A DNA stretch of 64,000 nucleotides from an uncultured Acidobacteriota bacterium (GTDB taxonomy: Bacteria; Actinomycetota; Acidimicrobiia; Spongiisociales; ZC4RG35). The stretch covers positions 192,389-256,388 of the forward strand of contig CAWILU010000006.1 in assembly GCA_963837055.1 (NCBI GenBank), written 5' to 3'. The stretch's first letter is position 1; each line of letters starts with the position of its first letter. Under the pieces are notes generated by a model. The model worked only from the letters and a program-made list of their open reading frames with translations. It was not told the DNA's origin and did no database searches. A program made the position numbers and the translations under genes. Shown piece after piece: positions 46,795 to 59,005 of the stretch.

Positions 46795-47460
46795 TCAGCC
46801 GATCAGCTGGTCGGCGATCGCCTTCAGGTCGGTGCCAAAGACCTCGGGCATCGCCCCGGGCAGGCTCCAGAAGCATCCCGGCCTCTGGACGAAGGCTGCG
46901 GATGCGCCGGCATTCATCGCCCCTGCCACATCCCAATCGTGGGCCGAGATCAACATCGATTGAGCGACGTCCACATCCATCACATGGGCCGCATGGCGAT
47001 AAGTGGCCGGGTCCGGCTTGAACCGGCCCAACTCCTCGACCGAGATCACGCGCTGGATGAACGTGTGCAACCCTGCGTTCTCGATCTGCACGTTCGCCGC
47101 CTTGGTGCTCCCGTTGGTCAGGGCGGCGGTACGGAACCCCGTATCGAGCAGACCCTCGAGAGCCGGGATCACATCGAGGTGGGCAGGGAGGATGGCGAGC
47201 CGGGTGACCAGCTCGGTAGCGGTCGCCTCATCGAGGTCCACCCCGCGACGCTCAGCCACCAAGAGAAGCGCTTCGACCCCGATCACCCCGAAGGCCCGGT
47301 AGTCATCGAGGTGATTGGAGACGAGTGACCCATGCAACAGACGAGCGAACCACTCCCCCATTGCATCAGCGCTGCCAAAGACATCCTCGAAGTCGATCCG
47401 CAGGGGCGACATGTCGAGCAACGTCTCGTTCACGTCGAAAACGAGTAGCTCGGGCCTCAC
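46795..47460 (-). CDS. HAD-superfamily hydrolase (haloacid dehalogenase type II-like)
   Basis: LLVFDVNETLLDM (DxxxT/motif I variant), ALTNGS, ISAHDWDVAGA. GTG 47460 forms GTGA with the upstream stop. Confidence 0.65.
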   Translation of the reverse strand: MRPELLVFDVNETLLDMSPLRIDFEDVFGSADAMGEWFARLLHGSLVSNHLDDYRAFGVIGVEALLLVAERRGVDLDEATATELVTRLAILPAHLDVIPALEGLLDTGFRTAALTNGSTKAANVQIENAGLHTFIQRVISVEELGRFKPDPATYRHAAHVMDVDVAQSMLISAHDWDVAGAMNAGASAAFVQRPGCFWSLPGAMPEVFGTDLKAIADQLIG

Positions 47461-48692
47461 GATGTCGGAAGGGTCCGGACGATCGCAGCCAGGGCGTCGT
47501 AGGTCCGCTCTCCCATCTGCTTCTCGTCTTCGTCGAGCAAGTTCGCCATGACCTTCAAAGTCCATTCCATCAACGACCGGCTCCGCAGCCCGGTGTGGGC
47601 CAGTGTCCGCATCACAGACGGGTGACCGATCAACTTCACGAAGATGCGGGCCATCTTGTAATAGAGCCCGTATTCATCTTCGAGTTGTTGTGGATATCGG
47701 CGTAACAGCCCGAAATCTGCAGTTCCCAATGCCCGACCGACGTGCTCGGCGGCGATGCGGCCGGTCTCGTAGGCGTAGGAGATCCCCTCGCCGTTCCAGG
47801 GATTGATCGCCCCGGCGGCGTCACCGATCGTGATCCAATTGGCGCCCACCAGGGGGCCCTTGGAGAATGACATGGTCAGCTTCCCGCCAACCGGGTTGGT
47901 CAGCTTCGACTCCTCGCTCAACTCCCAGTACTTCGGCGCCGTTGCCACGTAGTCGGCCATCATGTGGGTGGTGTTGACGTGCTTCCAGCGGGTGAAAGTG
48001 GAGAGCAGGCCGACCCCGACGTTGACCGTCCCATCACCGAGGGGAAAAACCCAGCCGTAACCGGGCATGGTCGCCCCGGTCGAGTCCCTCAGGTCGAGCT
48101 GGCTCTCCAGGAAGGGATCCTTCGAAAGTGGCGACGAGTAGTACCCCCGAGCGGCCATGCCCATCGGGTAGTCCCGGCGCCGCTCATTGCCCAGTTCCCG
48201 CCCGAACCGATTCATGGAGCCATCCGCGATCATGGTGATCCGGGGGGTGACCACCTCTTCAGTTCCACCATGGGCGAGCACGACACCGGTCAGCAGCCCC
48301 GCTTCGATCATCGGCGTCGCCGTGGTCTTCTCGAGGATCCTGACTCCCTGCTTCTCGGCGAGGGTGGCCACCTGACCGTCGAGGTCGCGTCGTCGCATCA
48401 CGCCACCCCAGTTGGGGAAGCGCGAATGATCGGGCCAGGTGAGCTCGACGTATCCCTCGCCTGCGTAAGAGCGGAGACCGGTGATCCGGTGGAACTCGGG
48501 GACGTCGAATTCGAAGCCCATGTCCTGGAGCTGGAGAACGGCCCGTGGCGTGAGACCGTCGCCACAGGTCTTGTCCCTGGGGTATTCCTTCGCTTCGACC
48601 AGAGTCACCTCGTGGCCGTCCCGGGCCAGCCAGTAGGCGGCGGCCGATCCGGCCGGGCCGCCACCGACTACGAGGACGGAGGGCGAGGACAT
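47457..48692 (-). CDS. Geranylgeranyl reductase family FAD-dependent oxidoreductase (possible menaquinone/isoprenoid reductase)
   Basis: VLVVGGGPAGSAAAYWLA, KTCGDGLTPR, GDAAGAINPWNGEGI. Confidence 0.8.
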   Translation of the reverse strand: MSSPSVLVVGGGPAGSAAAYWLARDGHEVTLVEAKEYPRDKTCGDGLTPRAVLQLQDMGFEFDVPEFHRITGLRSYAGEGYVELTWPDHSRFPNWGGVMRRRDLDGQVATLAEKQGVRILEKTTATPMIEAGLLTGVVLAHGGTEEVVTPRITMIADGSMNRFGRELGNERRRDYPMGMAARGYYSSPLSKDPFLESQLDLRDSTGATMPGYGWVFPLGDGTVNVGVGLLSTFTRWKHVNTTHMMADYVATAPKYWELSEESKLTNPVGGKLTMSFSKGPLVGANWITIGDAAGAINPWNGEGISYAYETGRIAAEHVGRALGTADFGLLRRYPQQLEDEYGLYYKMARIFVKLIGHPSVMRTLAHTGLRSRSLMEWTLKVMANLLDEDEKQMGERTYDALAAIVRTLPTS

Positions 48693-48764: not shown

Positions 48765-48780
48765 TGTGAATGAAATCCCA
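48765..48780. promoter_or_regulatory. Rex-operator-like site overlapping the rex start codon
   Basis: TGTGAATGAAATCCCA versus the Streptomyces ROP consensus TGTGAAnnnnTTCACA: 10 of 12 defined positions match. Confidence 0.3.
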
Positions 48781-49383
48781 AAGGCCACGGTGGTCCGTCT
48801 CCCCCGCTATCTCAGATTGTTGGAGGACCTCGACTCATCCCGCGACGTCGTCAGCTCGGAAGAGCTAGCCACCGCAGCCGGGGCAAACGCCGCCAACGTG
48901 CGCAGGGATCTCTCCCACCTCGACTTTCACGGTGTGCGCGGGATCGGCTACTCGGTCGGTGAGCTCAAGGCGCGCATCCGCCAGGAGCTGGGGATCGCCG
49001 AACGCCGGAAGGTCGCCATCGTCGGGGCCGGGAACCTGGGCCGAGCCCTGGCCAACTACGGGGGGCTGAGCCGACGCGGGTTCGATGTGATCGCGCTCTA
49101 CGACACCGATGTGAAGAAGATCGGCTCGACTGTGGGGAGCGTGACCATCCAGGATCTCGAGGTCCTCGACGGTGATTGCCAGTCGAAGAACTTCGAGATC
49201 GCCATCCTCGCCGTGCCCGCCGTGGCGGCACAACAGGTGGCCGATCGTCTGGTGGGGCACGGGATCCGCTCCATCCTCAATTTCGCCCCGGTCCGGGTGA
49301 ATGTTCCCGAGACGGTCTCGGTCCGTCAGGTGGATCTGTCGATGGAGCTACAGGTGCTGAGTTATTACGGGAGCCGGCTGTAG
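48766..49383 (+). CDS. rex: Redox-sensing transcriptional repressor Rex
   Basis: IPKATVVRLPRYLRLL, and the Rossmann motif VAIVGAGNLGRALANY. Confidence 0.9.
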   Translation: MNEIPKATVVRLPRYLRLLEDLDSSRDVVSSEELATAAGANAANVRRDLSHLDFHGVRGIGYSVGELKARIRQELGIAERRKVAIVGAGNLGRALANYGGLSRRGFDVIALYDTDVKKIGSTVGSVTIQDLEVLDGDCQSKNFEIAILAVPAVAAQQVADRLVGHGIRSILNFAPVRVNVPETVSVRQVDLSMELQVLSYYGSRL

Positions 49384-49387
49384 ACCC

Positions 49388-49771
49388 CTAGGCCCTGGCC
49401 TTCTCCTGCACTTCCTCGTACTGGTGCAGCGCCACCAGAAAGGCGAGAAAGAGCACCAGCGACACCAACAGATAGGTGATCGGGATGATCCGGATCTCGA
49501 ACGCGTTGAGGCCTTCGATGTCGGCCGGCTTGGGGCCACGCGGTGCATAGACCACGAACAACATCGAGGTGATCGTCAGCCAGCCGAACACCGCCGCCCC
49601 CGTCACCAGGAACCCGAGCCGTTTGCCCAGGTTGGTGTAATTGAACAGGTAGATCGAGCCGTAGAACAACGCAATCGCGGCCAGGGTGAGGATGATCCCG
49701 GTCACGAAGAGATTGGCCGAGAACAACGACCGGAAGAGCTCACGGAAGAACAACGGTGGCCTCCTTCCCAT
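49388..49771 (-). CDS. Small 4-TM membrane protein, last gene of the Rieske/cyt b operon
   Basis: 127 aa with four hydrophobic helices. It overlaps the cytochrome c gene end by 32 nt. No family recognised. Confidence 0.55.
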   Translation of the reverse strand: MGRRPPLFFRELFRSLFSANLFVTGIILTLAAIALFYGSIYLFNYTNLGKRLGFLVTGAAVFGWLTITSMLFVVYAPRGPKPADIEGLNAFEIRIIPITYLLVSLVLFLAFLVALHQYEEVQEKARA

Positions 49772-51662
49772 CCATGTTCCCGCCCCTCAGATAGCGGGCG
49801 AGCAACTCGATGTCATCCAGGCTCAGACTGGCGCCAAAAGCGGGCATTCGTCCCGAGCCGAAGCCATTGATCCCATACGGTGTCTCTGGTTGTGAACCTC
49901 TGATCAGGAACTGGATCAAGAGATCCTCTTCCGGGCTCTCCGTCGCTTCACCGAACTGGACGGTCGGCCGGCCGTCCCACAGCGCGGGGCCGAAACCGCC
50001 CGAGCCTGCCTCCTGCGTGTAGGGCACACCGGCGCTGTACCCGGCGGTGTGACACCGGGCGCAATTGGAGTTGAACAGACCTACCGCACGCTCCGCCTCG
50101 TCGGGCGACGAGCCCATGGCCTCTGCCACGCCGGCGAAATCGATCGAGTACAGCTGGGCTTCCAACGACTCCTCCAGATACCGGAGGCCTCCCTCTTCCT
50201 GCTCCAGGAGGGCATCCTGATTCTCCGACGTGATCGTGATCGTCGTCGACAGCGATTCCAGATTGCCGACCAGGGCGATGGCGGTGGCAGCATCGGGCTC
50301 GCCGCCGACTGAAGCCGGATTGGTCGGATCGAGAGTGACGAGTGTGATTTGGCTCGGGGTGGTCGCGGTGATGGCGGCGTCGACCTGGCTGGTGATGGCG
50401 GCCTCCGCTCCGGTGGACAACCCGTCGCCGTCGGGGTCCGAGCCTTCCTCGATGGCCGCGGTCGCAGCCGCGGCGAGGTCCGCCGCCCCCTCCACCGGCT
50501 CCTCGGCACCCGCCGCCTCGGTCAGCGCCGCCACCAGCTCGTCGGCGGCCCCGACGTCTTCAATCGCGCCCGGGACTTCGATCCCTGCCTCCTCGGCCGC
50601 AGCCCTGGTCTCCTCCAGAGTGGTCAATGCAGCGGTGCTCAGACCAACGGCTGGGTCGACCGCGCCGTCCTCCATCGCCGTCTCGATCGCCGCCACGTTG
50701 CCCAGGACAATCGGGTCTGTTTCAGACGCGTCTTGCAACGAGGCCAAGGCCTCATCAGCCAGCTCGGCGTCGGCTACCTCGGGATCGAGGGCGATCGGCT
50801 CCATGATCTGGAACCCGGCCACAGCCTCTGCAGAGATGTCGCTCAACTCGGTCTCGGCTGCGTCCGACACCCCATCGGCGTCGGTGTCGATCCCGGTCCC
50901 CGCCCCGGCCAGGACCTCACGAGCCCGGGTTGCGAGGGGCACCACGAGGTCGGCGTCCTCTGAAGCAGACTCGATGTTGGCTACCACCTGTCTCTGCTCG
51001 AGGATGGCCGCCTCGACAGCGGCGTCGGCGGTTTCGAGACGATCCAAAGCAGTGTCGATGCCCGGCTGGATATCCCCCAGGTTCTCATCCTGCGTCACCT
51101 GGATGGTCGCCAGATAGTTGACCACGTCCTCGACCTGCTGCTCGTTGAGTGGCCCACCGCCCGGGACGCCCCAGGCCGGCATCGGGGTGTTGCCCCGGCC
51201 GTACGTGACCCAGAAATTGACCTCGTCCTCCTGATATCGGAAGAAGACGTCGTTGAGAGAGGGCACCGCCCAATCCACCGTGACGCCGGACCGTTTCTCC
51301 ACGTATGGGGCAACTCCGCCCGATCCTTCCGGGCCGTGACAGTTGAAACAGCCGAACTCCTCGACCAGGTGCGCGCCACGCTCCACCGATCCCACGGCGA
51401 ACTCTTCGACGAATCCTGCCTGGCGATCCGGTTCGGTGAGGAAATAGAGAGGCAAGGAAATGGCGAGAAAGGCCGAGAAGGCGATAGCGGCTTTTTGCCC
51501 GCCCTCCAGACGTCGGGTCTCGATTTGCTCGTCGTCGATGCCTGGGCGGAGGTTGGGAGCGACTTCCTCACTGCCGCGGTTGCGGATCGCCGACACGAAA
51601 AGAAATCCGAGCCATGCGATCCCTGCGACCAGGGCGATGACCGTGATGATGTTGGCTGTCAT
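49740..51662 (-). CDS. Membrane-anchored dihaem cytochrome c with a ~340-aa acidic low-complexity insert
   Basis: N-terminal TM segment. CFNCH...TPMPAW and CARCH...GRMPAF haem-c motifs lie about 435 aa apart. ATG 51662 forms ATGA with the Rieske stop. Confidence 0.8.
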   Translation of the reverse strand: MTANIITVIALVAGIAWLGFLFVSAIRNRGSEEVAPNLRPGIDDEQIETRRLEGGQKAAIAFSAFLAISLPLYFLTEPDRQAGFVEEFAVGSVERGAHLVEEFGCFNCHGPEGSGGVAPYVEKRSGVTVDWAVPSLNDVFFRYQEDEVNFWVTYGRGNTPMPAWGVPGGGPLNEQQVEDVVNYLATIQVTQDENLGDIQPGIDTALDRLETADAAVEAAILEQRQVVANIESASEDADLVVPLATRAREVLAGAGTGIDTDADGVSDAAETELSDISAEAVAGFQIMEPIALDPEVADAELADEALASLQDASETDPIVLGNVAAIETAMEDGAVDPAVGLSTAALTTLEETRAAAEEAGIEVPGAIEDVGAADELVAALTEAAGAEEPVEGAADLAAAATAAIEEGSDPDGDGLSTGAEAAITSQVDAAITATTPSQITLVTLDPTNPASVGGEPDAATAIALVGNLESLSTTITITSENQDALLEQEEGGLRYLEESLEAQLYSIDFAGVAEAMGSSPDEAERAVGLFNSNCARCHTAGYSAGVPYTQEAGSGGFGPALWDGRPTVQFGEATESPEEDLLIQFLIRGSQPETPYGINGFGSGRMPAFGASLSLDDIELLARYLRGGNMDGKEATVVLP

Positions 51663-52552
51663 GCCCCGGCGGCCGGTGCCACGGCGCTGATGCAACTAGG
51701 ACCCTGCGGATAGGCGACGCTCAGCTCGGGCGCTCGAGGTGTCTCGATCCTGGTACCGGTCTTGATGATGAGGATCCCACCCTGGTTCTCGACGACGAAC
51801 CGGTCGAGGTTCCGCGGAGCCGGGCCTCCGAAATACTGGCCGATGGCGTTGTACCTCGACCCATGACAGGGGCACTCGAAACCCTGCGACGGCGCGCACC
51901 AAGGAACCCGGCATCCGAGATGGACACATCGCATGTAAAGCGCCATCAGACCGTCGGTTTCGACGCTCTTGCCTTCGAATTGGGCTGACGGCTCCTCTGG
52001 GGCGGGAACGATATAGGCCCGTGCCTCGGGTATGAACAGCGGTAGCACGGCTCCGCCCGGGGTGAACACCTGGGTGCGGAGATCCGAGATGGGGCCGGCC
52101 GTGATGTCGGCCCCGAAGCCGCCGGTGAGTTTGGGCCAGAAAAACACGAGGTAGTAGAGGCCCTGGCCGGCGAGAAAAGTGCCGAAGGTGGCGACGATGG
52201 CGCGGTTGAAGAACTGGCGCCTGTTGACGCCACCTTCTTCGGGAGATACCTCCACGATGCGCTGGGTCTCGAGGATGTCGACGACTGCATCGGCTTCCTC
52301 CACCTGCTCCTCGGTTTGCTCCGCCTCGGGCTCCGCCGGCTCGTCGACGTCCGGCTCCTCCTCGACCAGAGGAGGGACGACGACCGCGGTAGCGGCCGAT
52401 CGATCCGCGGCCAAGGTTTCCGCCGAGACACCGGCCAAGGGATCGGGTTTCTCGGCAGTCTGCGATCGGCGGTAGGCGACGGCGAACGCACCGGCCGCCC
52501 CGAGGATCGCCACGACGGCGACCGCAATGAGGGCGGCGTTGGTCCAGGTCAT
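51659..52552 (-). CDS. Rieske [2Fe-2S] subunit of a quinol-cytochrome c reductase-type complex
   Basis: CVHLGCRV and CPCHGSRY boxes, an internal RRQFF Tat-like motif, and an N-terminal TM segment plus acidic linker. Confidence 0.85.
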   Translation of the reverse strand: MTWTNAALIAVAVVAILGAAGAFAVAYRRSQTAEKPDPLAGVSAETLAADRSAATAVVVPPLVEEEPDVDEPAEPEAEQTEEQVEEADAVVDILETQRIVEVSPEEGGVNRRQFFNRAIVATFGTFLAGQGLYYLVFFWPKLTGGFGADITAGPISDLRTQVFTPGGAVLPLFIPEARAYIVPAPEEPSAQFEGKSVETDGLMALYMRCVHLGCRVPWCAPSQGFECPCHGSRYNAIGQYFGGPAPRNLDRFVVENQGGILIIKTGTRIETPRAPELSVAYPQGPSCISAVAPAAGA

Positions 52553-53652
52553 TCGAATTGCACCCAGTCCTTCAGGTCATCGAAATAGACCCCGTCCTTC
52601 CACGGGTAGGAGAAGTTGAAGCCAAGACCGCGGAATAGGACCCCGAAAATGGTCAACGTCGCGGCGCCGGCCAGGAACACCGAGTAGAGGGCGATGGCGA
52701 ACTTGCGGTCACTCGGCCGGGTAGACGGGTTCTTGTCGACGTAGGGCACCATCATGAAACCGATGATCCCCGTGATCGTGGGCACCGTGACGCCGGCGAT
52801 CTGGGGGTCGAAGTAGGACAGCAGCTCCTGGAGGCCGAGGAAGTACCACGGCGCCTTCGACGGGTTCGGGGTGGCGTTGAAATTGGCCGGGTCGAGCAGC
52901 GGGGAGTGGATGATCACCGACATGATCACCACCAGACCAGTGATGGCCAGCAGCGCACCGAATTCCATCAACATCAGATGGGGCCAGGTGTTGACCTTGT
53001 CGGTTGGCTCCGCCTTGACCGTCTGGATCGCCCTCGCCTTGACCACGGTGAGCAGACGCTGGGTGCGCACCCCTTCGGGCGTCCCCTTCGGGGGCACGGT
53101 GGGACGGGCGCTGACCACGGCCGCCACTTTTCCCGCGCCGTTTCCGGAGCCACTCCCTGCGCCGTTGCCCGCGCCGTCGCCCGCGCCGTCACCGGCTTCC
53201 GGGGCGGGACGGTCCTCGACCGCGGTAGCGACCGATGCGGCGACGGGCTCGACCTCGGTGTCGGGCTGGGCCTCGGTGTCAGGCTGGGCCTCGGTGTCAG
53301 GCTGGGCCTCGGGAGCCTCATCAGTCTCGGCTTCGGTAGGCGGCGCCGGTGGCACCTCTGCCTCGGCCGCGGCCTCGACCTCCGGCGTCTCCGTCGCCGC
53401 CGCCTCGGCAGGGACCTCCTCGGCCGGGGCAGGCTCCTCTTCGACCGCTTCCACTGCCTCTTCGATCTCCTCGGAACGCTCGGCCGAAGCCTCCATTTCC
53501 TTGGCCGGCTCCGGCTCGGGCTCGGCCGAAGGGGGTGGTGTCGGCGGCGCCTCGCCCTTCATCTCGGCCAGGACCTGTTCGACGGGGAGCCCCAATGCTT
53601 TGGCCTTGGCCTCTGCCGACCTTCTGAGGAGACTCTCTGGTATCTCGGTCAT
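52549..53652 (-). CDS. Cytochrome b C-terminal part / b6f subunit-IV-like protein with long N-terminal extension
   Basis: The C-terminal ~170 aa carries PNPSKAPWYFLGLQELL (PEWY-type motif) and 3 TM segments. The N-terminal ~190 aa holds a conserved module plus PDTEAQ and GAGDGAG repeats. Confidence 0.75.
   Translation of the reverse strand: MTEIPESLLRRSAEAKAKALGLPVEQVLAEMKGEAPPTPPPSAEPEPEPAKEMEASAERSEEIEEAVEAVEEEPAPAEEVPAEAAATETPEVEAAAEAEVPPAPPTEAETDEAPEAQPDTEAQPDTEAQPDTEVEPVAASVATAVEDRPAPEAGDGAGDGAGNGAGSGSGNGAGKVAAVVSARPTVPPKGTPEGVRTQRLLTVVKARAIQTVKAEPTDKVNTWPHLMLMEFGALLAITGLVVIMSVIIHSPLLDPANFNATPNPSKAPWYFLGLQELLSYFDPQIAGVTVPTITGIIGFMMVPYVDKNPSTRPSDRKFAIALYSVFLAGAATLTIFGVLFRGLGFNFSYPWKDGVYFDDLKDWVQFE
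53253..53312. repeat. 18-bp tandem repeat (3.3 copies) inside the subunit-IV-like gene
   Basis: cctcggtgtc[g/a]ggctggg repeated head to tail, encoding (PDTEAQ)n on the minus strand. A 12-bp GC-rich repeat lies nearby at about 53150..53195. Confidence 0.8.
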
Positions 53653-53661
53653 GACGACTCC

Positions 53662-54438
53662 TTAAAGCGGCCCTGAGATGCCGCCGTCCTTGCGCACTCG
53701 CCAGAAATGGACGGCGAGGAAAATCACGAGGACGAACGGAAACGCGAGCACATGCAGCACATAGAAGCGAAGCAGGGTGGAGGCCGACACCTCCACGCCG
53801 GCAAGCAAGGCGAATTTGACCTGATTTCCCACCACGGGGACGAAGCCGGCCATGTTGGTCCCAACCGTCACCGCCCACAGCGCCAGCTGGTCCCAGGGAA
53901 GGAGATAGCCGGAGAAAGAGAGGAGCAGGGTGAGGAAGAGGAGTACGACACCCACCACCCAGTTGAACTCACGAGGGGGTTTGTAGGCGCCGTGATAGAA
54001 GACCCGGCTCATGTGGAGGAAGACGGAGAGGACCATCAGATGGGCGCCCCAGCGGTGCATGTTCCGGACCAGGGAGCCGAAGGCGACGTTGGTGGAGAGG
54101 GCCTCGATATCGGCATAGGCGGTCTCGGCCGACGGCGTGTAATAGAACATCAGGAAGATGCCGGTGATGGTCAGGAGGATGAAGAGGAAGAAGCTGAGAC
54201 CGCCGAGACAGAGTGTGTAGGACAGCTTGACCCCGTGCCGCTTCACCTTCACCGGGTGGAGGTGATAGAGCACGTTGTTCATCACGACGTACGACCGGTT
54301 CCTCGGGCTGTCCGAGTATCCCTTTTTGAACGGCGAGCCAGGGCGGAGGATCGACTCGGCGACCTGGGAGCCCCAGACCTTGTCGTTCACCTCTTTGATT
54401 CTCGCCCCGATGCCGGGCTTACCGTTGCCGTTGGCCAC
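53662..54438 (-). CDS. Cytochrome b6-type (N-terminal four-helix) cytochrome b
   Basis: [46 protein letters not shown], and the second His pair in [23 protein letters not shown]. Start GTG 54438 follows AGGAGG. Confidence 0.85.
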
Positions 54439-54446
54439 GTCGCCTC

Positions 54447-54896
54447 CTACCAGCGCATCCCGTAGGCATAACCATTCTTGAAGTCCCTCTGCCCGGTGTC
54501 GAAATCCCAGGGCCGGCGGTCGAGACCGAGCTCCACGGCCTGCTCGGCGAGCGACCCCTCGAATTTGCCCAAGGTGATGACGTTGGTCGGGCAGCGATCG
54601 ACGCACAGAGCGCACCGGGTGCACTCGTCTTCGTCGACCACGAAAAAGCCGAGATTCTGCGGATCCTCACCGGGGTGGTCGACATTGACTCCCTCGGTGA
54701 TCGCATCGAGCGACAGGTAGTGGATGCACTTCCAGGGGCAGATGTCGACGCAGCCCTCGCAAATGATGCATTCGGCCTGATCGATGTGGAGGAACTGCTT
54801 GGGGCGGAGCTTGTCGGTGAAATAGTCGCCCTCGACCACTGCCAACTGATAGTCGTCGCGATATGGAGGCGTCTCGTCGACGACACCCTTGGGCAT
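54447..54896 (-). CDS. 2x[4Fe-4S] ferredoxin-type protein
   Basis: [12 protein letters not shown] and [15 protein letters not shown] 54896 overlaps the upstream stop by 1 nt. Confidence 0.8.
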
Positions 54897-55502
54897 CAGC
54901 CTTCGCCTCTGACGAGCGGCCGCCCATAAGGCGAGCGTGGCGGTTCCTTGTCGGCGGACACAGGTGGGCCCTTCTTGATCTTCTGGAGCTGAAGGACGAA
55001 CACGGCGGCCGCTCCGAGCATGACCAGGTGATAACCCATCGAGATCGAGTCTTTGATCGCGGCGTAGCTGAGCTGGACGTCGTTGCCCAGGACGAGCACC
55101 GGCGGGATGGTCAGGGCAACGCGTTGCGACGACCAGTCGAGATCGGTTTGTGCGAAGTTGAGCCATTCCGAGGGGACCATGCCGAAGATGATGACCAGCT
55201 CGATCCAAGAGATGAAGGCGGCGAACAGGGCGCGGGCCCAGGTCAACCGCTGATTGAGAACCCAGAGGAACAAGGCGCCGACAACCAGCATCTGGGATGC
55301 GCCGAAGACGACCAGATACCCGAGTCCCTTCCAAATCGCGCCGCGTGGGGATCCAATCGAAGATGCCTCCATCCTCCCCGGGCGCCAGGCTGGAATAGTG
55401 GATCCAGATCACCCCGACGACGAGAGCGACGAAGCCGAGACCGAGCAGTCCCCACCCGATGCTCTTGCGTCTGCTGTCGCTGAGTTCTGCCAGCCGGTAC
55501 AT
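54896..55502 (-). pseudogene. Membrane protein, first gene of the Rieske/cyt b operon, apparent frameshift
   Basis: Frame A reads MYRLAELSDSRRKSIGWGLLGLGFVALVVGVIWIHYSSLAPGEDGGIFDWIP, then turns Arg-rich. Frame B (ORF 54896..55372) continues RGAIWKGLGYLVVFG... with 3-4 TM segments. Junction near 55337-55352. Alternatively an intact 158-aa gene starts at ATG 55372. Confidence 0.5.
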
Positions 55503-55603: not shown

Positions 55604-57124
55604 GTGGCTGCGGTGGGAATCGATGAAGTAGTTATGCTCCCGCCGTCCCGTTCCGCGACGAGGGAACCCTTGGCCGCAACCCAAACTGCAGACATCAGGG
55701 CCCTGCTCGGGGCCGGTGACGAAGACCGCGTCGCCGTAGCCCATTTCCTCGTCGGCGCCTTGTTCCTCGTCGTGGCCGGTGTCTTCGAGCTTCTCTCTCT
55801 CTTCGCCCTGAGATTCGGCGGGCTCGCCCCGATCAGCTACGGCCGGGCCGAGTCGCTGGCCAACGTCACCGTCATGCTCGGGTTCCTCGTCCTCACTTTG
55901 GCCGGCGGCATCTACTACGTCCTCCCCAGACTGACCGGGGCTCGGCTGTGGAGGAAAGAGCTGGCCTATCTCGGTCTGCTCGGGGTGTCCGGTCTGGTGG
56001 TCCTCGACCTTCTCGCCATCGTCTTCGGCTTTGGCGAAGGCCGCCAGCCGTTCGGCGTTCCCTGGTGGCTCCATCTCCCGATGCTGGCCGTTCTCCTCAT
56101 CCCCCTGGCTGTCACCGTGATGACTATCCGGCGGCGCGAGGAACAACGGAGCTTCGTCACGCTCTGGTTCGTAATGGGTGGAGTCGTCTGGCTCCCATTG
56201 CTCTACCTCGTCTACACCGTTGGACAGCTCCCGTTCTTCTCCGCTCTCGGCGAGGAATACTCAGATCTCTTCTTCTCCGCCGGGTTCGTCACCCTCTGGG
56301 TGTTCACGGTGGGCAGCGGGCTCTTCTATTACACCCTCGTCAAGGAGCTGGACATCCCGCTCGCCTCCCGCCAGCTGGCCTCGGTTGGCTTCTGGTCGTT
56401 GGGATTCGCAGCAGCATGGTGGGGCTCAGCCCAGCTCGTGTTCGGCCCTGGGCCGGGCTGGATCGACGGAGTGTCAGCCGCGTTGGGCCTCGCCTTTCCG
56501 ATTGGGGCACTGGCCAACGCATCGAATGCCTCGGTCACCCTCCAGGGCCACTGGGAGGAGCTGGGCGACAAGCCGGGGGTGGTGTCGGGGGTCTTGGGTC
56601 TCTACCTGGGAGTGGCAGTGGCAATCCTCGCCAGCTTCGCCTCCTTCCCGTCCGTGGGATCGGTGACCGCGCTCACGGCTTATTGGGAGGCGATCGAATA
56701 TGCCGCTCTCTACGGGGTGGGAGTGCTCCTTGCCGCCGGGATCGTGTTCGAGGCCCTGCCCCGTGTCGCCGGTCGTGAGCTGGCCTCTCTGGACCGCCCC
56801 CGGTCGTTCAATCGCTGGACTGTGATCGGCGTCGGCGGCGTCGCGGTCAGCCTTGTGGCATCCGGGCTGGTCAGCGGCTACTCGTGGGTGGCCGGGTCCA
56901 ATAGCGCGGCCTATGTCGACGTTGGTGAAGGTTGGGCTGCGGGAGCCGGGACGGCCGAGGTCCTGCTGCTCGTTGCATTCGGGTTCGGCATCATCGCCTT
57001 CCTCGGCCAGCTGGCTTACGCCGCCACAGTCCTCGGGACCGTCACCATCGGGAAGGCGGTCCCCCAGGAGGTGCTGGTCTACGGGTTGGAGCCGCCGGGC
57101 GGCGAGGAAGTCGCTGATGAGTGA
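55604..57124 (+). CDS. cbb3-type oxidase subunit I (CcoN)-like 12-TM protein lacking the canonical His ligands
   Basis: Blocks resemble CcoN (ISYGRAESLANVTVMLGF, GGIYYVLPRLTGARLW, TLWFVMGGVVW, ALANASNASVTLQGHWEEL). Only 3 His in 506 aa, none at expected ligand positions. Start uncertain (GTG 55604 or ATG 55634). Confidence 0.6.
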   Translation: MAAVGIDEVVMLPPSRSATREPLAATQTADIRALLGAGDEDRVAVAHFLVGALFLVVAGVFELLSLFALRFGGLAPISYGRAESLANVTVMLGFLVLTLAGGIYYVLPRLTGARLWRKELAYLGLLGVSGLVVLDLLAIVFGFGEGRQPFGVPWWLHLPMLAVLLIPLAVTVMTIRRREEQRSFVTLWFVMGGVVWLPLLYLVYTVGQLPFFSALGEEYSDLFFSAGFVTLWVFTVGSGLFYYTLVKELDIPLASRQLASVGFWSLGFAAAWWGSAQLVFGPGPGWIDGVSAALGLAFPIGALANASNASVTLQGHWEELGDKPGVVSGVLGLYLGVAVAILASFASFPSVGSVTALTAYWEAIEYAALYGVGVLLAAGIVFEALPRVAGRELASLDRPRSFNRWTVIGVGGVAVSLVASGLVSGYSWVAGSNSAAYVDVGEGWAAGAGTAEVLLLVAFGFGIIAFLGQLAYAATVLGTVTIGKAVPQEVLVYGLEPPGGEEVADE

Positions 57125-57941
57125 GCTGAGCGCCGCCGCTGCCGAGGCCTTGGGCATCCCCGAGGCGATCGTCTCGCGGTCGGCTGCCGCCCGCGCTGAG
57201 GAAACCGGGATGACCGTTGACGAGGTTCTCGCCGCATGGGCCGGTGGCGGGGACATCCCGGCTCCTGTTTCCTCCCCCGGGAGCGAAGCGACTTTGGGTG
57301 AGGTGGATCGGCCGGAGGCCGAGACGGAGGGGGCTCCGGAACCCGTAAGAGACGACACTCCCCCCTCCCCGCCTCCGGCGGTACTCCCCCCTGCGGGGAG
57401 AGAAATGCCGCCGCCGGCCGTTCCCGGAAAGCCACCGGTCCTGATCGGAGAGACCGACAACCCGATCGCGGTGCTGGTGGGCGCGGTCGGTCTGTTCGTC
57501 GCTCTCTTCCTGGTCGGCGTTGTCGGCCCTTCCCTACCCACAGAGAACCCGGGGGCACGCACCAGTGAGCTGCCCTACAGCGCTGCGGGCCTCCATGGGC
57601 AGGACATCTACCAGTCTGTGGGCTGCGCTTCGTGCCATACCCAGATGGTCCGTCCCGTGATAGCGGACGTCGGCCTCGGTGCGGTCTCTCTCAATGACAG
57701 CAACCAGGTGCTCGGCTCACGCCGCTTCGGGCCGGATCTCTCCGATATCGGTGGACGTACCTCTGCCAGCCAGATCGAAGCAGTGATAACCGGTTTCGAT
57801 GGTCATCCGTCGCTGTCGCTGTCTACGGAGGATCTCGACGCGCTGGTCACCTATCTGGTCGAGTCGGCGACTCTCGAGGAGGCTCCGGCAGAAGAGCCCG
57901 TCGAGGAAGAGGCGGCTGAGGAAGAGGCAGCGGCTCCATGA
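57117..57941 (+). CDS. CcoO-like monohaem cytochrome c subunit with N-terminal conserved module
   Basis: GQDIYQSVGCASCHTQMVRP and GSRRFGPDLSDIGGR match CcoO. N-terminal module MSELSAAAAEALGIPEAIVSRSAAARAEETGMTVDEVLAAWAGGG, then a Pro-rich linker and a TM segment. It overlaps the upstream gene by 8 nt. Confidence 0.7.
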   Translation: MSELSAAAAEALGIPEAIVSRSAAARAEETGMTVDEVLAAWAGGGDIPAPVSSPGSEATLGEVDRPEAETEGAPEPVRDDTPPSPPPAVLPPAGREMPPPAVPGKPPVLIGETDNPIAVLVGAVGLFVALFLVGVVGPSLPTENPGARTSELPYSAAGLHGQDIYQSVGCASCHTQMVRPVIADVGLGAVSLNDSNQVLGSRRFGPDLSDIGGRTSASQIEAVITGFDGHPSLSLSTEDLDALVTYLVESATLEEAPAEEPVEEEAAEEEAAAP

Positions 57942-59005
57942 GCGATCTGAGCGCTGCCGCGGCCGCTCTCGGCGTCCCTGAGGCCATCGTGCAACGGTCG
58001 GCTGCGGCGCGCGCCACCGAGACCGGGATGACCGTCGACGAGGTGCTGGCCGCCTGGGCCGGTGGCGGATCGGTAGCAGGAGCTCCCGCTCCGTCTGCGG
58101 AGGACGCGCCACCCGCTGAGGTCGAAGAGGCAGTCGAGGAAAAGGCCGCCCCCTCCCCGCCTCCGGCGGTCGTTCCCCCTTCGGGTGGAGAGACGCCGGT
58201 CGAGCCGGCTGCGGCCCCCGCAGGTCCGGTGACTCGTTCGCCTGTCCCGGCCGAAGTCACCGCTGCCGAGGCAGCAGGTTTGCCCGAGGTGGTCACGGTG
58301 CCTACTGCAGGGATCAGGGAGCGCCCCAACTTCGCCATCCCTCGGTGGCTGGCCGCGGTGATGCTGATCATTCCCGCTTTCGCTCTGTTCGCCCTGGGCG
58401 GGTCCGCCACCGGCGAATGCGGCGAGTCGACCGAGCTCGACACCGACGTGATCACCGGTGAGGTGGTGAATTGCGACGGGACCGAGTTCACCGGATCCGG
58501 CACCGGGGGCGGTGGCGCCGACTTCATCGCCATGGGCGAGGACGTCTACATGAACGTCGCCAACTGCGACGGCTGTCATGGCGCCCAGGGAGAGGGTGGG
58601 GTGGGACCAGGTTTCGCCGGGGTGGTCAACACCTTCGGCTCCTGCGCCGATCACATCGAGTGGGTCACCCTCGGCTCGGCCGGTTTCCAGGCCGACGGGC
58701 GGGGAACCTACGGGGACACAGGCAAGGCGATAAACGGAGGCATGCCCGCATTTGGGGATAGTTTGAGTCCCGAGCAACTCGCCTCGGCAGTCGCCTACGA
58801 GCGGGTCCGTTTCGGTGGCGCCGACCCGGCCGAGGTCCTGACCGACTGTGGTCTCGCACCGGCGGAGGGTGAGGAAGGCGAAGAGGGCGGTGCCCCCGGT
58901 GAGACGACTCCGGGCTCGACCACCCCCGGTGAAGAGGCCCCGGCAGACGGCGAGACAACGACCACCGTGAGCGGCGCCGAGGCTGCGATCGCCCGCGTGC
59001 CCTGA
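57938..59005 (+). CDS. Membrane-anchored class-I cytochrome c (CcoP-like role) with the same N-terminal module
   Basis: CDGCHG ... GGMPAF. The N-terminal MSDLSAAAAALGVPEAIVQRSAAARATETGMTVDEVLAAWAGGG is paralogous to that of the preceding gene. ATGA overlap. Confidence 0.7.
   Translation: MSDLSAAAAALGVPEAIVQRSAAARATETGMTVDEVLAAWAGGGSVAGAPAPSAEDAPPAEVEEAVEEKAAPSPPPAVVPPSGGETPVEPAAAPAGPVTRSPVPAEVTAAEAAGLPEVVTVPTAGIRERPNFAIPRWLAAVMLIIPAFALFALGGSATGECGESTELDTDVITGEVVNCDGTEFTGSGTGGGGADFIAMGEDVYMNVANCDGCHGAQGEGGVGPGFAGVVNTFGSCADHIEWVTLGSAGFQADGRGTYGDTGKAINGGMPAFGDSLSPEQLASAVAYERVRFGGADPAEVLTDCGLAPAEGEEGEEGGAPGETTPGSTTPGEEAPADGETTTTVSGAEAAIARVP

Follow-up and report, generated by a model that had tools for sequence, protein, structure and literature searches.

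A small N-terminal module common to membrane-anchored electron-transfer proteins of Acidimicrobiia and its possible role in cytoplasmic docking

Supercomplexes of bc1 and cbb3 and membrane-anchored cytochromes c have been described in Rhodobacter capsulatus (PMC7876108) and Pseudomonas aeruginosa (PMC10556555), and an obligate bcc–aa3 supercomplex in the Actinobacteria Corynebacterium and Mycobacterium (PMC5040959). The present work concerns a module of about 45 residues that opens three different membrane-anchored electron-transfer proteins encoded in a stretch of 64,000 nucleotides of contig CAWILU010000006.1 (positions 192,389 to 256,388 of the forward strand), referred to below as the window. 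Two divergent operons were found there, a Rieske/cytochrome b operon on the minus strand and a CcoN–CcoO–cytochrome c operon on the plus strand.

As in the Proteobacteria, a bc-type complex and a CcoN/CcoO/cytochrome c set are encoded side by side and the carriers are anchored by an N-terminal helix; in the Proteobacteria, however, the tether lies on the outer side of the membrane, CcoN is a functional oxidase, and no common cytoplasmic domain is reported in the available text (PMC7876108, PMC10556555). The actinobacterial bcc–aa3 system belongs to the same phylum as the window, likewise lacks a soluble cytochrome c and has its di-haem cytochrome c encoded with the bc-type complex (PMC5040959). 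It differs from the window, where cytochrome b is split (b6 plus subunit IV) and the partner is CcoN-like rather than aa3. To our knowledge, no repeated cytoplasmic module is present in mycobacterial or corynebacterial subunits. In Chlamydomonas, activation of the Stt7 kinase involves the N-terminal region of b6f subunit IV on the n-side (the stroma). Both the subunit and the membrane side correspond to those of the module, and the stromal region is an interaction surface for a non-redox partner; it is, however, a short segment of the subunit rather than a separate tethered fold, is unrepeated and does not occur on other proteins.

Three copies of the module and their membrane topology

The N-termini of the CcoO-like protein and of the cytochrome c encoded next to it were identical at 43 of 53 positions (BLASTP, E 5e-17), and the CcoO-like protein matched the N-terminus of the subunit-IV-like protein of the opposite operon at 14 of 30 positions (BLASTP, E 5e-05), the latter version being shorter and more divergent. 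A profile made from the three copies found only three matches in the six-frame translation of the 64-kb window (E 5e-28, 8e-28 and 6e-18), the fourth-best having E 0.42. A preliminary description of this DNA, made from the letters alone, had proposed a common N-terminal module on these three proteins, and exactly these three copies were recovered. The likeness of the two long copies was visible in the DNA, as had also been claimed (about 79 % identity over the module-coding columns, with 81 % identity in protein); since third-position differences were numerous, the duplication is not very recent. The module copies and the genes that carry them are as follows.

57117–57251, plus strand: module copy 1, long form (aa 1–45), at the N-terminus of the CcoO-like protein (profile E 8e-28; AlphaFold2)
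57938–58069, plus strand: module copy 2, long form (aa 1–44), at the N-terminus of the mono-haem cytochrome c (profile E 5e-28)
53551–53652, minus strand: module copy 3, short form (aa 1–34) without the first helix, at the N-terminus of the subunit-IV-like protein (profile E 6e-18)
57117–57941, plus strand: CcoO-like mono-haem cytochrome c, whole gene
57252–57464, plus strand: acidic Pro/Ala/Glu-rich tether of the CcoO-like protein, ending in the juxtamembrane motif GKPPVLIGETDNP (57426–57464)
57465–57941, plus strand: anchor (aa 117–135) and FixO/CcoO-type haem c domain of the CcoO-like protein, with CASCH at aa 170 (hydropathy, CxxCH, Pfam)
57938–59005, plus strand: mono-haem cytochrome c, whole gene, with an ATGA start/stop overlap with the CcoO-like gene
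58070–59005, plus strand: remainder of the mono-haem cytochrome c, with acidic tether, juxtamembrane stretch VTRSPVPAEVTAAEAAGLPEVVTVPTAGIRERP (58229–58327), anchor aa 138–156 (58349–58405) and haem c site CDGCH at aa 210
52549–53652, minus strand: subunit-IV-like protein (C-terminal part of cytochrome b), whole gene
52549–53550, minus strand: remainder of the subunit-IV-like protein, with a Glu/Ala/Pro-rich tether of about 195 aa, three membrane helices (the first at aa 231–249, 52906–52962) and an outer-loop PWYF motif

The CcoO-like protein matched Pfam FixO above its cut-off (E 3e-12 over aa 138–217) and NCBIfam ccoO below its cut-off (E 7e-12); it is mono-haem, has an N-terminal anchor and a CxxCH motif and is encoded after subunit I, its ATG overlapping the stop codon of the CcoN-like gene, in an order that is conserved. 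The mono-haem cytochrome c matched Pfam Cytochrome_CBB3 (E 4.7e-07 over aa 199–287) and the subunit-IV-like protein Pfam Cytochrom_B_C (E 5e-06 over aa 255–338).

Each module was followed by a Pro/Ala/Glu-rich stretch and then by a hydrophobic helix, in agreement with the preliminary description. The further linker likeness noted there, PSPPPAV(L/V)PP.G, exists in the window, but P[ST]PPP occurred in only four of 67 CcoO-like and four of 66 cytochrome c orthologues, and it was rejected as a second common element: it is a local low-complexity likeness that lies outside the module. The cytoplasmic juxtamembrane stretches of the CcoO-like protein and the cytochrome c were kept in orthologues, unlike the remainder of the tethers, and the AAEAAGLPEVV part of the latter stretch gave a very weak module-like match.

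Attachment of haem to cytochrome c takes place outside the membrane. In both cytochromes a single anchor helix (aa 117–135 and 138–156) separated the module from the CxxCH of the haem domain (aa 170 and 210), which places the module in the cytoplasm. The N-terminus of subunit IV is on the n-side in b6f-type complexes, and the position of the PWYF loop behind the first helix of the subunit-IV-like protein fits such an arrangement. A further carrier with a cupredoxin-like end had seven membrane helices before its outward copper-type domain in a crude hydropathy scan, and the module was absent where CcoO was fused behind the 12-helix CcoN-like protein, in line with a cytoplasmic module. The first 30 or so residues of the three proteins held no hydrophobic core of the signal-peptide kind; the hydrophobic segments began at aa 117, 138 and 231, and the module itself was amphipathic, charged and predicted to be helical. 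Hydropathy and these topology arguments thus support the cytoplasmic location put forward in the preliminary description, and speak against a signal anchor or a position outside the cell. The module is therefore predicted to stand at the free cytoplasmic N-terminus of membrane-anchored electron-transfer proteins, held off the membrane by an acidic spacer.

Fold, conservation and carriers of the module

The signature derived from 273 copies was L-x2-A-A-x3-G-h-P-E-x-L-h-x-R-S-A-x-A-[RK]-A-K-A-x-G-x2-h-[DE]-x-[VI]-L-A-x-[WM]-x-G-G, where h is hydrophobic; the P, R and S and three of the four Ala in the RS-A-x-A-[RK]-A stretch were kept in 93–99 % of them. For the long form, with 71 diverse copies as input, AlphaFold2 predicted helices at residues 2–12, 16–30 and 34–41 (predicted local distance difference test, pLDDT, 83). 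For the short subunit IV form it predicted helices at residues 6–20 and 24–32 (pLDDT 79), corresponding to the last two of the long form. Structure prediction, which the preliminary description had recommended, thus yielded three helices, and the predicted fold is probably a variant of small three-helix bundles; the module has only a faint helix-turn-helix (HTH)-like signature. Mean net charge was +1.3 for helix 2, −1.8 for helix 3 and −0.7 for the core overall, whilst the two long window copies carried about −5 each when counted by eye. Such a dipolar surface, with a basic helix 2 and an acidic helix 3, would suit electrostatic pairing.

The spacers behind the module were 45–174 aa long in orthologues, contained 18–26 % Pro, were rich in Ala and Glu and had a net charge of −14 to −21 per 100 residues. 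Those of CcoO-like orthologues (45–65 aa; 26 % Pro, 24 % Ala, 14 % Glu) had −15 per 100 residues and were 45 % identical between species, and those of subunit IV orthologues (98–174 aa) had −21. Overall spacer identity between species was 45–56 %. The modules were more conserved than the redox domains of the same proteins, with identities between species of 70 vs 62 % (CcoO-like), 77 vs 67 % (cytochrome c) and 94 vs 88 % (subunit IV), and the subunit IV module was 94–95 % identical across 43–52 species. Over the 29 core codons, pairs of subunit IV modules differed by 12.8 synonymous and 1.1 non-synonymous changes, compared with 11.9 and 5.4 for the cytochrome c module. This mostly synonymous change indicates selection on the protein rather than on RNA; together with the internal repeats and the lack of any Rfam match in the window, it ruled out an RNA-level cause of the conserved 5′ coding regions. 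The module is accordingly a protein domain of about 45 residues under selection, which is predicted to fold on its own as three short helices.

No curated family in Pfam-A or NCBIfam corresponded to the module: the full proteins matched in their C-terminal redox domains only, and isolated modules had a best E of 0.06. When the 71 diverse copies were compared with Pfam, no more than three matched any one family (best E 0.0035) and no single copy reached a cut-off. PDB sequences gave nothing better than E 0.28, and Foldseek found no match in PDB or BFVD at E ≤ 0.001, the top matches being designed helical repeats, although very small domains score poorly in such searches. Neither the module nor the altered CcoN of Acidimicrobiia described below was mentioned in the literature covered by a full-text search, from which subscription journals were mostly absent. 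These results uphold the earlier view that the module cannot be assigned to a named domain; its design recalls tethered docking domains, and its family and context are new.

The distribution of the module was examined by a degenerate-pattern scan of one genome per species, which confirmed at least 257 places; 78 loci were kept, nearly all from metagenome-assembled genomes (MAGs) named Acidimicrobiia or Actinomycetota. The closest relatives (L001–L009 and others) are titled ‘uncultured Acidobacteriota bacterium’ (MFD isolates) and, in one case, ‘uncultured Boseongicola sp.’; as their genes are 80–100 % identical to those of MAGs titled Acidimicrobiia, these titles look mislabelled. Within the 78 loci, module-bearing genes comprised 67 CcoO-like, 66 cytochrome c and 53 subunit IV genes. 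All three carriers could be compared in 43 of the loci, with the whole divergent gene order kept. The profile was also run exhaustively against 1.84 billion representative proteins, a word-indexed search with the 46-residue profile having returned only fragments of ≤80 aa, and this gave 442 matches at E ≤ 1e-3, of which 307 had E ≤ 1e-10. The module is therefore present in orthologues and is not a local duplication, a possibility that had been raised with the first description. The search of related taxa with the profile, proposed at the same time, revealed at least five carrier architectures, all of them membrane-anchored. Classification of 182 retrieved proteins, among which most of those left unclassified were metagenomic fragments, gave the following carriers.

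CcoO-like protein: 21 proteins, one copy (in the two-copy P0053, the reading of CcoO seems to continue into the following gene)
Mono- or di-haem cytochrome c: 21 proteins, one to five copies
Subunit IV: 13 proteins, two to five copies in the retrieved sample and one or two in the fetched genome loci
Membrane protein of about seven helices without a Pfam match: about a dozen proteins (no reference was included for them), one copy
P0038/P0044 type: two proteins, three to seven copies

The carriers of about seven helices (P0109, P0116, P0141, P0145 and P0162; loci L041, L060 and L069) had the module at the N-terminus, and some (P0141 and P0162) ended in a cupredoxin-like domain, borderline in Pfam, with the typical C-x-I-x-G-H-x3-M end. 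Judged by eye from translations, the neighbours of the L060 gene are non-respiratory: an F420-type luciferase-like oxidoreductase, a membrane protein, a D-2-hydroxyacid (phosphoglycerate)-type dehydrogenase and an aminotransferase. Proteins of the P0038/P0044 type consisted of modules, a subunit-IV-like helix and a homologue of the 127-aa membrane protein encoded in the window (tblastn of their C-terminal parts against the window, E 8e-27 for P0038 and 2e-29 for P0044). Directly upstream of P0038-type genes, in L079 and L080, were homologues of a second window protein, the membrane protein of about 200 aa that heads the Rieske/cytochrome b operon. The contexts of L060, L079 and L080 (short contigs or unrelated neighbours) were informative only for this adjacent homologue. 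Every module-bearing protein either forms part of the same electron-transfer chain or serves it as a carrier.

Tandem arrays held two to seven copies with Pro/Ala-rich spacers between them. In seven loci of a marine-sediment lineage (metagenome contigs L081, L084, L089, L091, L092, L094 and L095), CcoN-like and CcoO-like proteins were fused into one of about 660–715 aa in which the CcoO part had no module, and in all seven the adjoining module-bearing frame had two to five copies. Five of these loci had a confirmed cytochrome c with three to five copies as the next gene, and two had a frame cut by the contig end after two copies. Both fusion loci with a complete subunit IV gene (L091 and L094) had two copies on subunit IV. 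Genome loci with a separate CcoO-like gene had one copy on every confirmed cytochrome c. The second subunit IV copy of L091, compared by eye, was identical at 38 of 49 positions to a copy on the cytochrome c of the same contig and unlike the first copy of its own protein, and CcoO-like and cytochrome c modules were 80 % identical within a genome as against 72 % between genomes. Module copies have thus moved between genes.

The CcoN-like protein and the neighbouring genes

The first gene of the plus-strand operon encodes a homologue of cbb3 subunit I (PDB 9g83_t, E 6.5e-14). In the window protein, A, A, A, Q, I and Y occupy the six columns that hold the His ligands of this subunit (two for haem b, one for haem b3 and three for CuB). 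None of 114 CcoN-like homologues had His in any ligand column, only one had a His within three columns of one, and the median was three His per protein; public annotation (NCBI, JGI) names these homologues cbb3-type cytochrome c oxidase subunit I. The preliminary description had placed the module on two different redox complexes. This stands for the Rieske/cytochrome b system, but the second complex departs from a normal cbb3 oxidase, all six His ligands having gone. Without metal-ligand His, it is more likely to be a cofactor-less scaffold for the two cytochromes c than an oxygen reductase, and the two module-bearing ‘complexes’ may be one Rieske/cytochrome b system and a cofactor-less scaffold carrying cytochromes c. 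If the CcoN-like protein is a scaffold, it becomes more plausible that it is physically linked, possibly via the modules, to the bc-type complex encoded beside it.

Gene order on the plus strand is CcoN-like, CcoO-like and mono-haem cytochrome c. On the minus strand it is the membrane protein of about 200 aa, a ferredoxin-like protein, a cytochrome b6-like protein, the subunit-IV-like protein, a Rieske protein, a di-haem cytochrome c and the 127-aa membrane protein. The features not yet listed are as follows.

55604–57124, plus strand: CcoN-like 12-helix protein, first gene of its operon (Pfam COX1, E 7e-20; PDB 9g83_t)
54896–55502, minus strand: membrane protein of about 200 aa, of no known family, at the head of the Rieske/cytochrome b operon, frameshifted near 55347
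54447–54902, minus strand: soluble 2×[4Fe-4S] ferredoxin-like protein
53662–54441, minus strand: cytochrome b6-type N-terminal half of cytochrome b, directly upstream of the subunit-IV-like gene (Pfam Cytochrome_B, E 5e-47)
51659–52552, minus strand: Rieske protein (Pfam Rieske, E 4e-07)
49740–51695, minus strand: di-haem cytochrome c
49388–49771, minus strand: 127-aa membrane protein

The b6-like, subunit-IV-like and Rieske genes of the split b6-type system are adjacent and conserved, and their Pfam scores exceed the cut-offs. The cytochrome b6-like protein, whose probable GTG start at 54441 was inferred from translation, had a mean identity of 94 % in orthologous loci. At aa 139 (54208–54210, minus strand), where its first membrane helix begins, it has Y-T-L-C-L-G-G, which resembles the haem ci/cn-binding cysteine of b6f and Firmicute b6c; by this motif, the protein may carry an extra n-side haem.

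The ferredoxin-like protein is an unusual component of a bc-type operon. It was about 90 % identical across species, and no gene for it was detected in three loci of the marine-sediment lineage (L091, L092 and L095). The gene for the membrane protein of about 200 aa is split over two frames in the window and continuous in orthologues (e.g. L010 and L048), which points either to an indel introduced in sequencing or assembly or to a genuine frameshift. In the di-haem cytochrome c, an acidic insert of over 300 residues lies between the haem domains with CFNCH (aa 116) and CARCH (aa 545); this insert (aa 200–530) has D-x-D-x-D-G-like motifs, DTDADGVSD at 50862–50888 and DPDGDGLS at 50415–50438, that recall calcium-binding repeats. 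Immediately after the last gene of the Rieske/cytochrome b operon and in the opposite orientation lies a gene for a Rex-type redox-sensing repressor (Put_DNA-bind_N and CoA_binding; 48766–49383, plus strand), adjoined by a gene for a geranylgeranyl-reductase-like flavoprotein (47457–48692, minus strand).

Possible roles of the module

Our preferred, and still tentative, reading of the sequences is that the module quite possibly acts as a multivalent cytoplasmic docking element that gathers components of the respiratory chain. It would bind copies of itself on neighbouring subunits, or one common partner in the cytoplasm or at the membrane surface, in the manner of a ‘sticker on a spacer’, and the copy number of one to seven would set the valency. 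Through docking, one assembly or membrane patch would come to include the bc-type complex, the CcoN-like scaffold together with its cytochromes c, and the other anchored carriers, which would help a cell without a soluble cytochrome c pool. Docking or tethering had already been suggested in the preliminary description. The arrays of two to seven copies, the two further carrier types, the conservation of the modules above that of the redox domains, the exchange of copies and the conserved pairing of the two operons agree with it, but no binding partner was identified. The membrane protein of about 200 aa is a candidate partner on the basis of co-occurrence, since its gene was found with module-bearing genes in all the contexts seen. 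A weaker case can be made for the ferredoxin-like protein, because the three loci in which it was not detected keep, and multiply, their modules.

Several further points weigh against docking. Disordered spacers of 50–170 residues would be an odd glue for a rigid supercomplex and are a better fit to loose clustering or to capture of a soluble partner. Instead of a common constraint on binding, gene conversion between neighbouring genes could account for the likeness of modules within a genome, and the link between copy number and the CcoN–CcoO fusion may go back to one lineage only. As the subunit IV copy hardly varies, its partner may differ from that of the more variable long form. A more far-reaching version of the docking proposal, in which weakly self-associating modules on acidic tethers, with valencies of one to seven, condense the Rieske/cytochrome b complex, the cofactor-less scaffold and the cupredoxin-like and cytochrome carriers into a supramolecular patch, we consider unlikely. 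We know of no counterpart in studied organisms of a respiratory supercomplex built from the inside of the cell.

Less likely again is a device for biogenesis or topology, whereby a fast-folding cap would keep the acidic tail cytoplasmic, enforce an N-in anchor or be read by a targeting or insertion factor. Such a role would account for the position of the module, always before the first membrane helix and at a free N-terminus, and for its loss where the N-terminus of CcoO is fused to another membrane protein; moreover, the charge of the tails is of a kind for which the positive-inside rule would not favour cytoplasmic retention. It leaves unexplained why there should be two to seven copies, or a tail at all, and why the subunit IV module should be 94 % identical with almost only synonymous change, given that a plain folding cap tolerates substitutions. 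Many bacteria, furthermore, insert CcoO, anchored cytochromes c and subunit IV without any such domain.

The peripheral subunit-binding domain (PSBD, PF02817) of the E2 chains of 2-oxo-acid dehydrogenases is a docking mini-domain flanked by flexible Pro/Ala-rich linkers, and the module could by analogy be the dock of a swinging arm that recruits a cytoplasmic enzyme, such as the ferredoxin-like protein or a dehydrogenase, to the n-side. We regard this as doubtful. The design is the same, a helical mini-domain of 35–45 residues on long flexible linkers with a basic helix as the probable interaction surface, and a well-conserved soluble 2×[4Fe-4S] protein is encoded in the operon. The likeness, however, is one of working principle only: the module is N-terminal, on membrane proteins and sometimes in arrays, and lacks the G-T-G loop. 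Homology to PSBD was rejected, as profile–profile comparison (hhalign) with four PSBD sequences gave a probability of 0.35 % over six aligned columns and there was no Pfam E3_binding match. In addition, modules persist and are even multiplied where the ferredoxin-like gene went undetected, and they occur on carriers with no obvious need of a cytoplasmic redox partner.

It is improbable that the module is a nucleic-acid-binding HTH, which, tethered to the membrane, would either keep a regulatory activity there or connect the respiratory complexes with the nucleoid or with the mRNAs that encode them. Like the tri-helical HTH domains (PF20432 Xre-like-HTH and PF13560 HTH_31), the module has three short helices in about 45 residues, and the stretch S-h-E-x-A-A-x-x-L-G-h-P-x-x-L-h-x-R resembles an HTH core. 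The sub-threshold Pfam matches of single modules were mostly to HTH families (HTH_31, Xre-like-HTH, Sigma70_r3/r4, HTH_3, Myb and MerR), and four multi-copy subunit IV proteins exceeded the PF20432 gathering score of 25.8 (27–32 bits), only as whole proteins with the repeats summed. The middle helix bears the invariant R and [RK]-A-K, and a rex gene stands beside the operon. Since no single module reached the cut-off of an HTH family and the family score was attained only by summing repeats, the module is called HTH-like here and not a member of an HTH family. Unlike an HTH it is net-acidic, not only in the core but in the last helix (about −2) and the long window copies, and its highly acidic tethers would repel nucleic acid. 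The first helix of the putative HTH is missing from the most conserved form, that of subunit IV, the carriers are respiratory membrane proteins rather than regulators, and Foldseek found no HTH structure at E ≤ 0.001.

Equally improbable, in our estimate, is a handle for regulation or turnover, through which a Ser/Thr kinase acting at R-S, pupylation of the lysines or an adaptor for an AAA+ protease would tune the subunits together. R-S was kept in 95–97 % of the 273 copies, and the lysines of [RK]-A-K show conservation too. The long tether leaves the domain accessible, the stoichiometry of the carriers should be co-ordinated, and the Stt7 kinase provides a precedent at the n-side of subunit IV. 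A modification site nevertheless needs a short linear motif rather than a folded domain of 45 residues conserved throughout, and tandem arrays are unexpected for a degron. No conserved gene for a kinase, Pup ligase or protease was seen beside the operons in the loci inspected, in which such genes were not searched for systematically.

Chance likeness, a low-complexity artefact or a functionless strain-specific duplication, which the Ala-rich region and the low-complexity linkers behind it might bring to mind, can be dismissed in view of the BLASTP values within the window, the 442 representative proteins, the 43 loci, the purifying selection and the confident fold prediction.

Two consequences for the Acidimicrobiia bear on annotation and on the membership of the chain. 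In this class, proteins labelled ‘cbb3-type subunit I’ are unable to bind the canonical haems or copper, so that the label is an annotation error, and metabolic reconstructions that credit Acidimicrobiia with a high-affinity oxidase on the basis of a CcoN without ligands are probably wrong. The module, for its part, can be used as a membership tag, having picked out the protein of about seven helices, in some cases with a cupredoxin-like end, and the P0038-type protein as members of the chain. If it is indeed a common docking handle, it would provide a sequence-defined mechanism by which anchored carriers are kept beside the bc-type complex in bacteria without a soluble cytochrome c.

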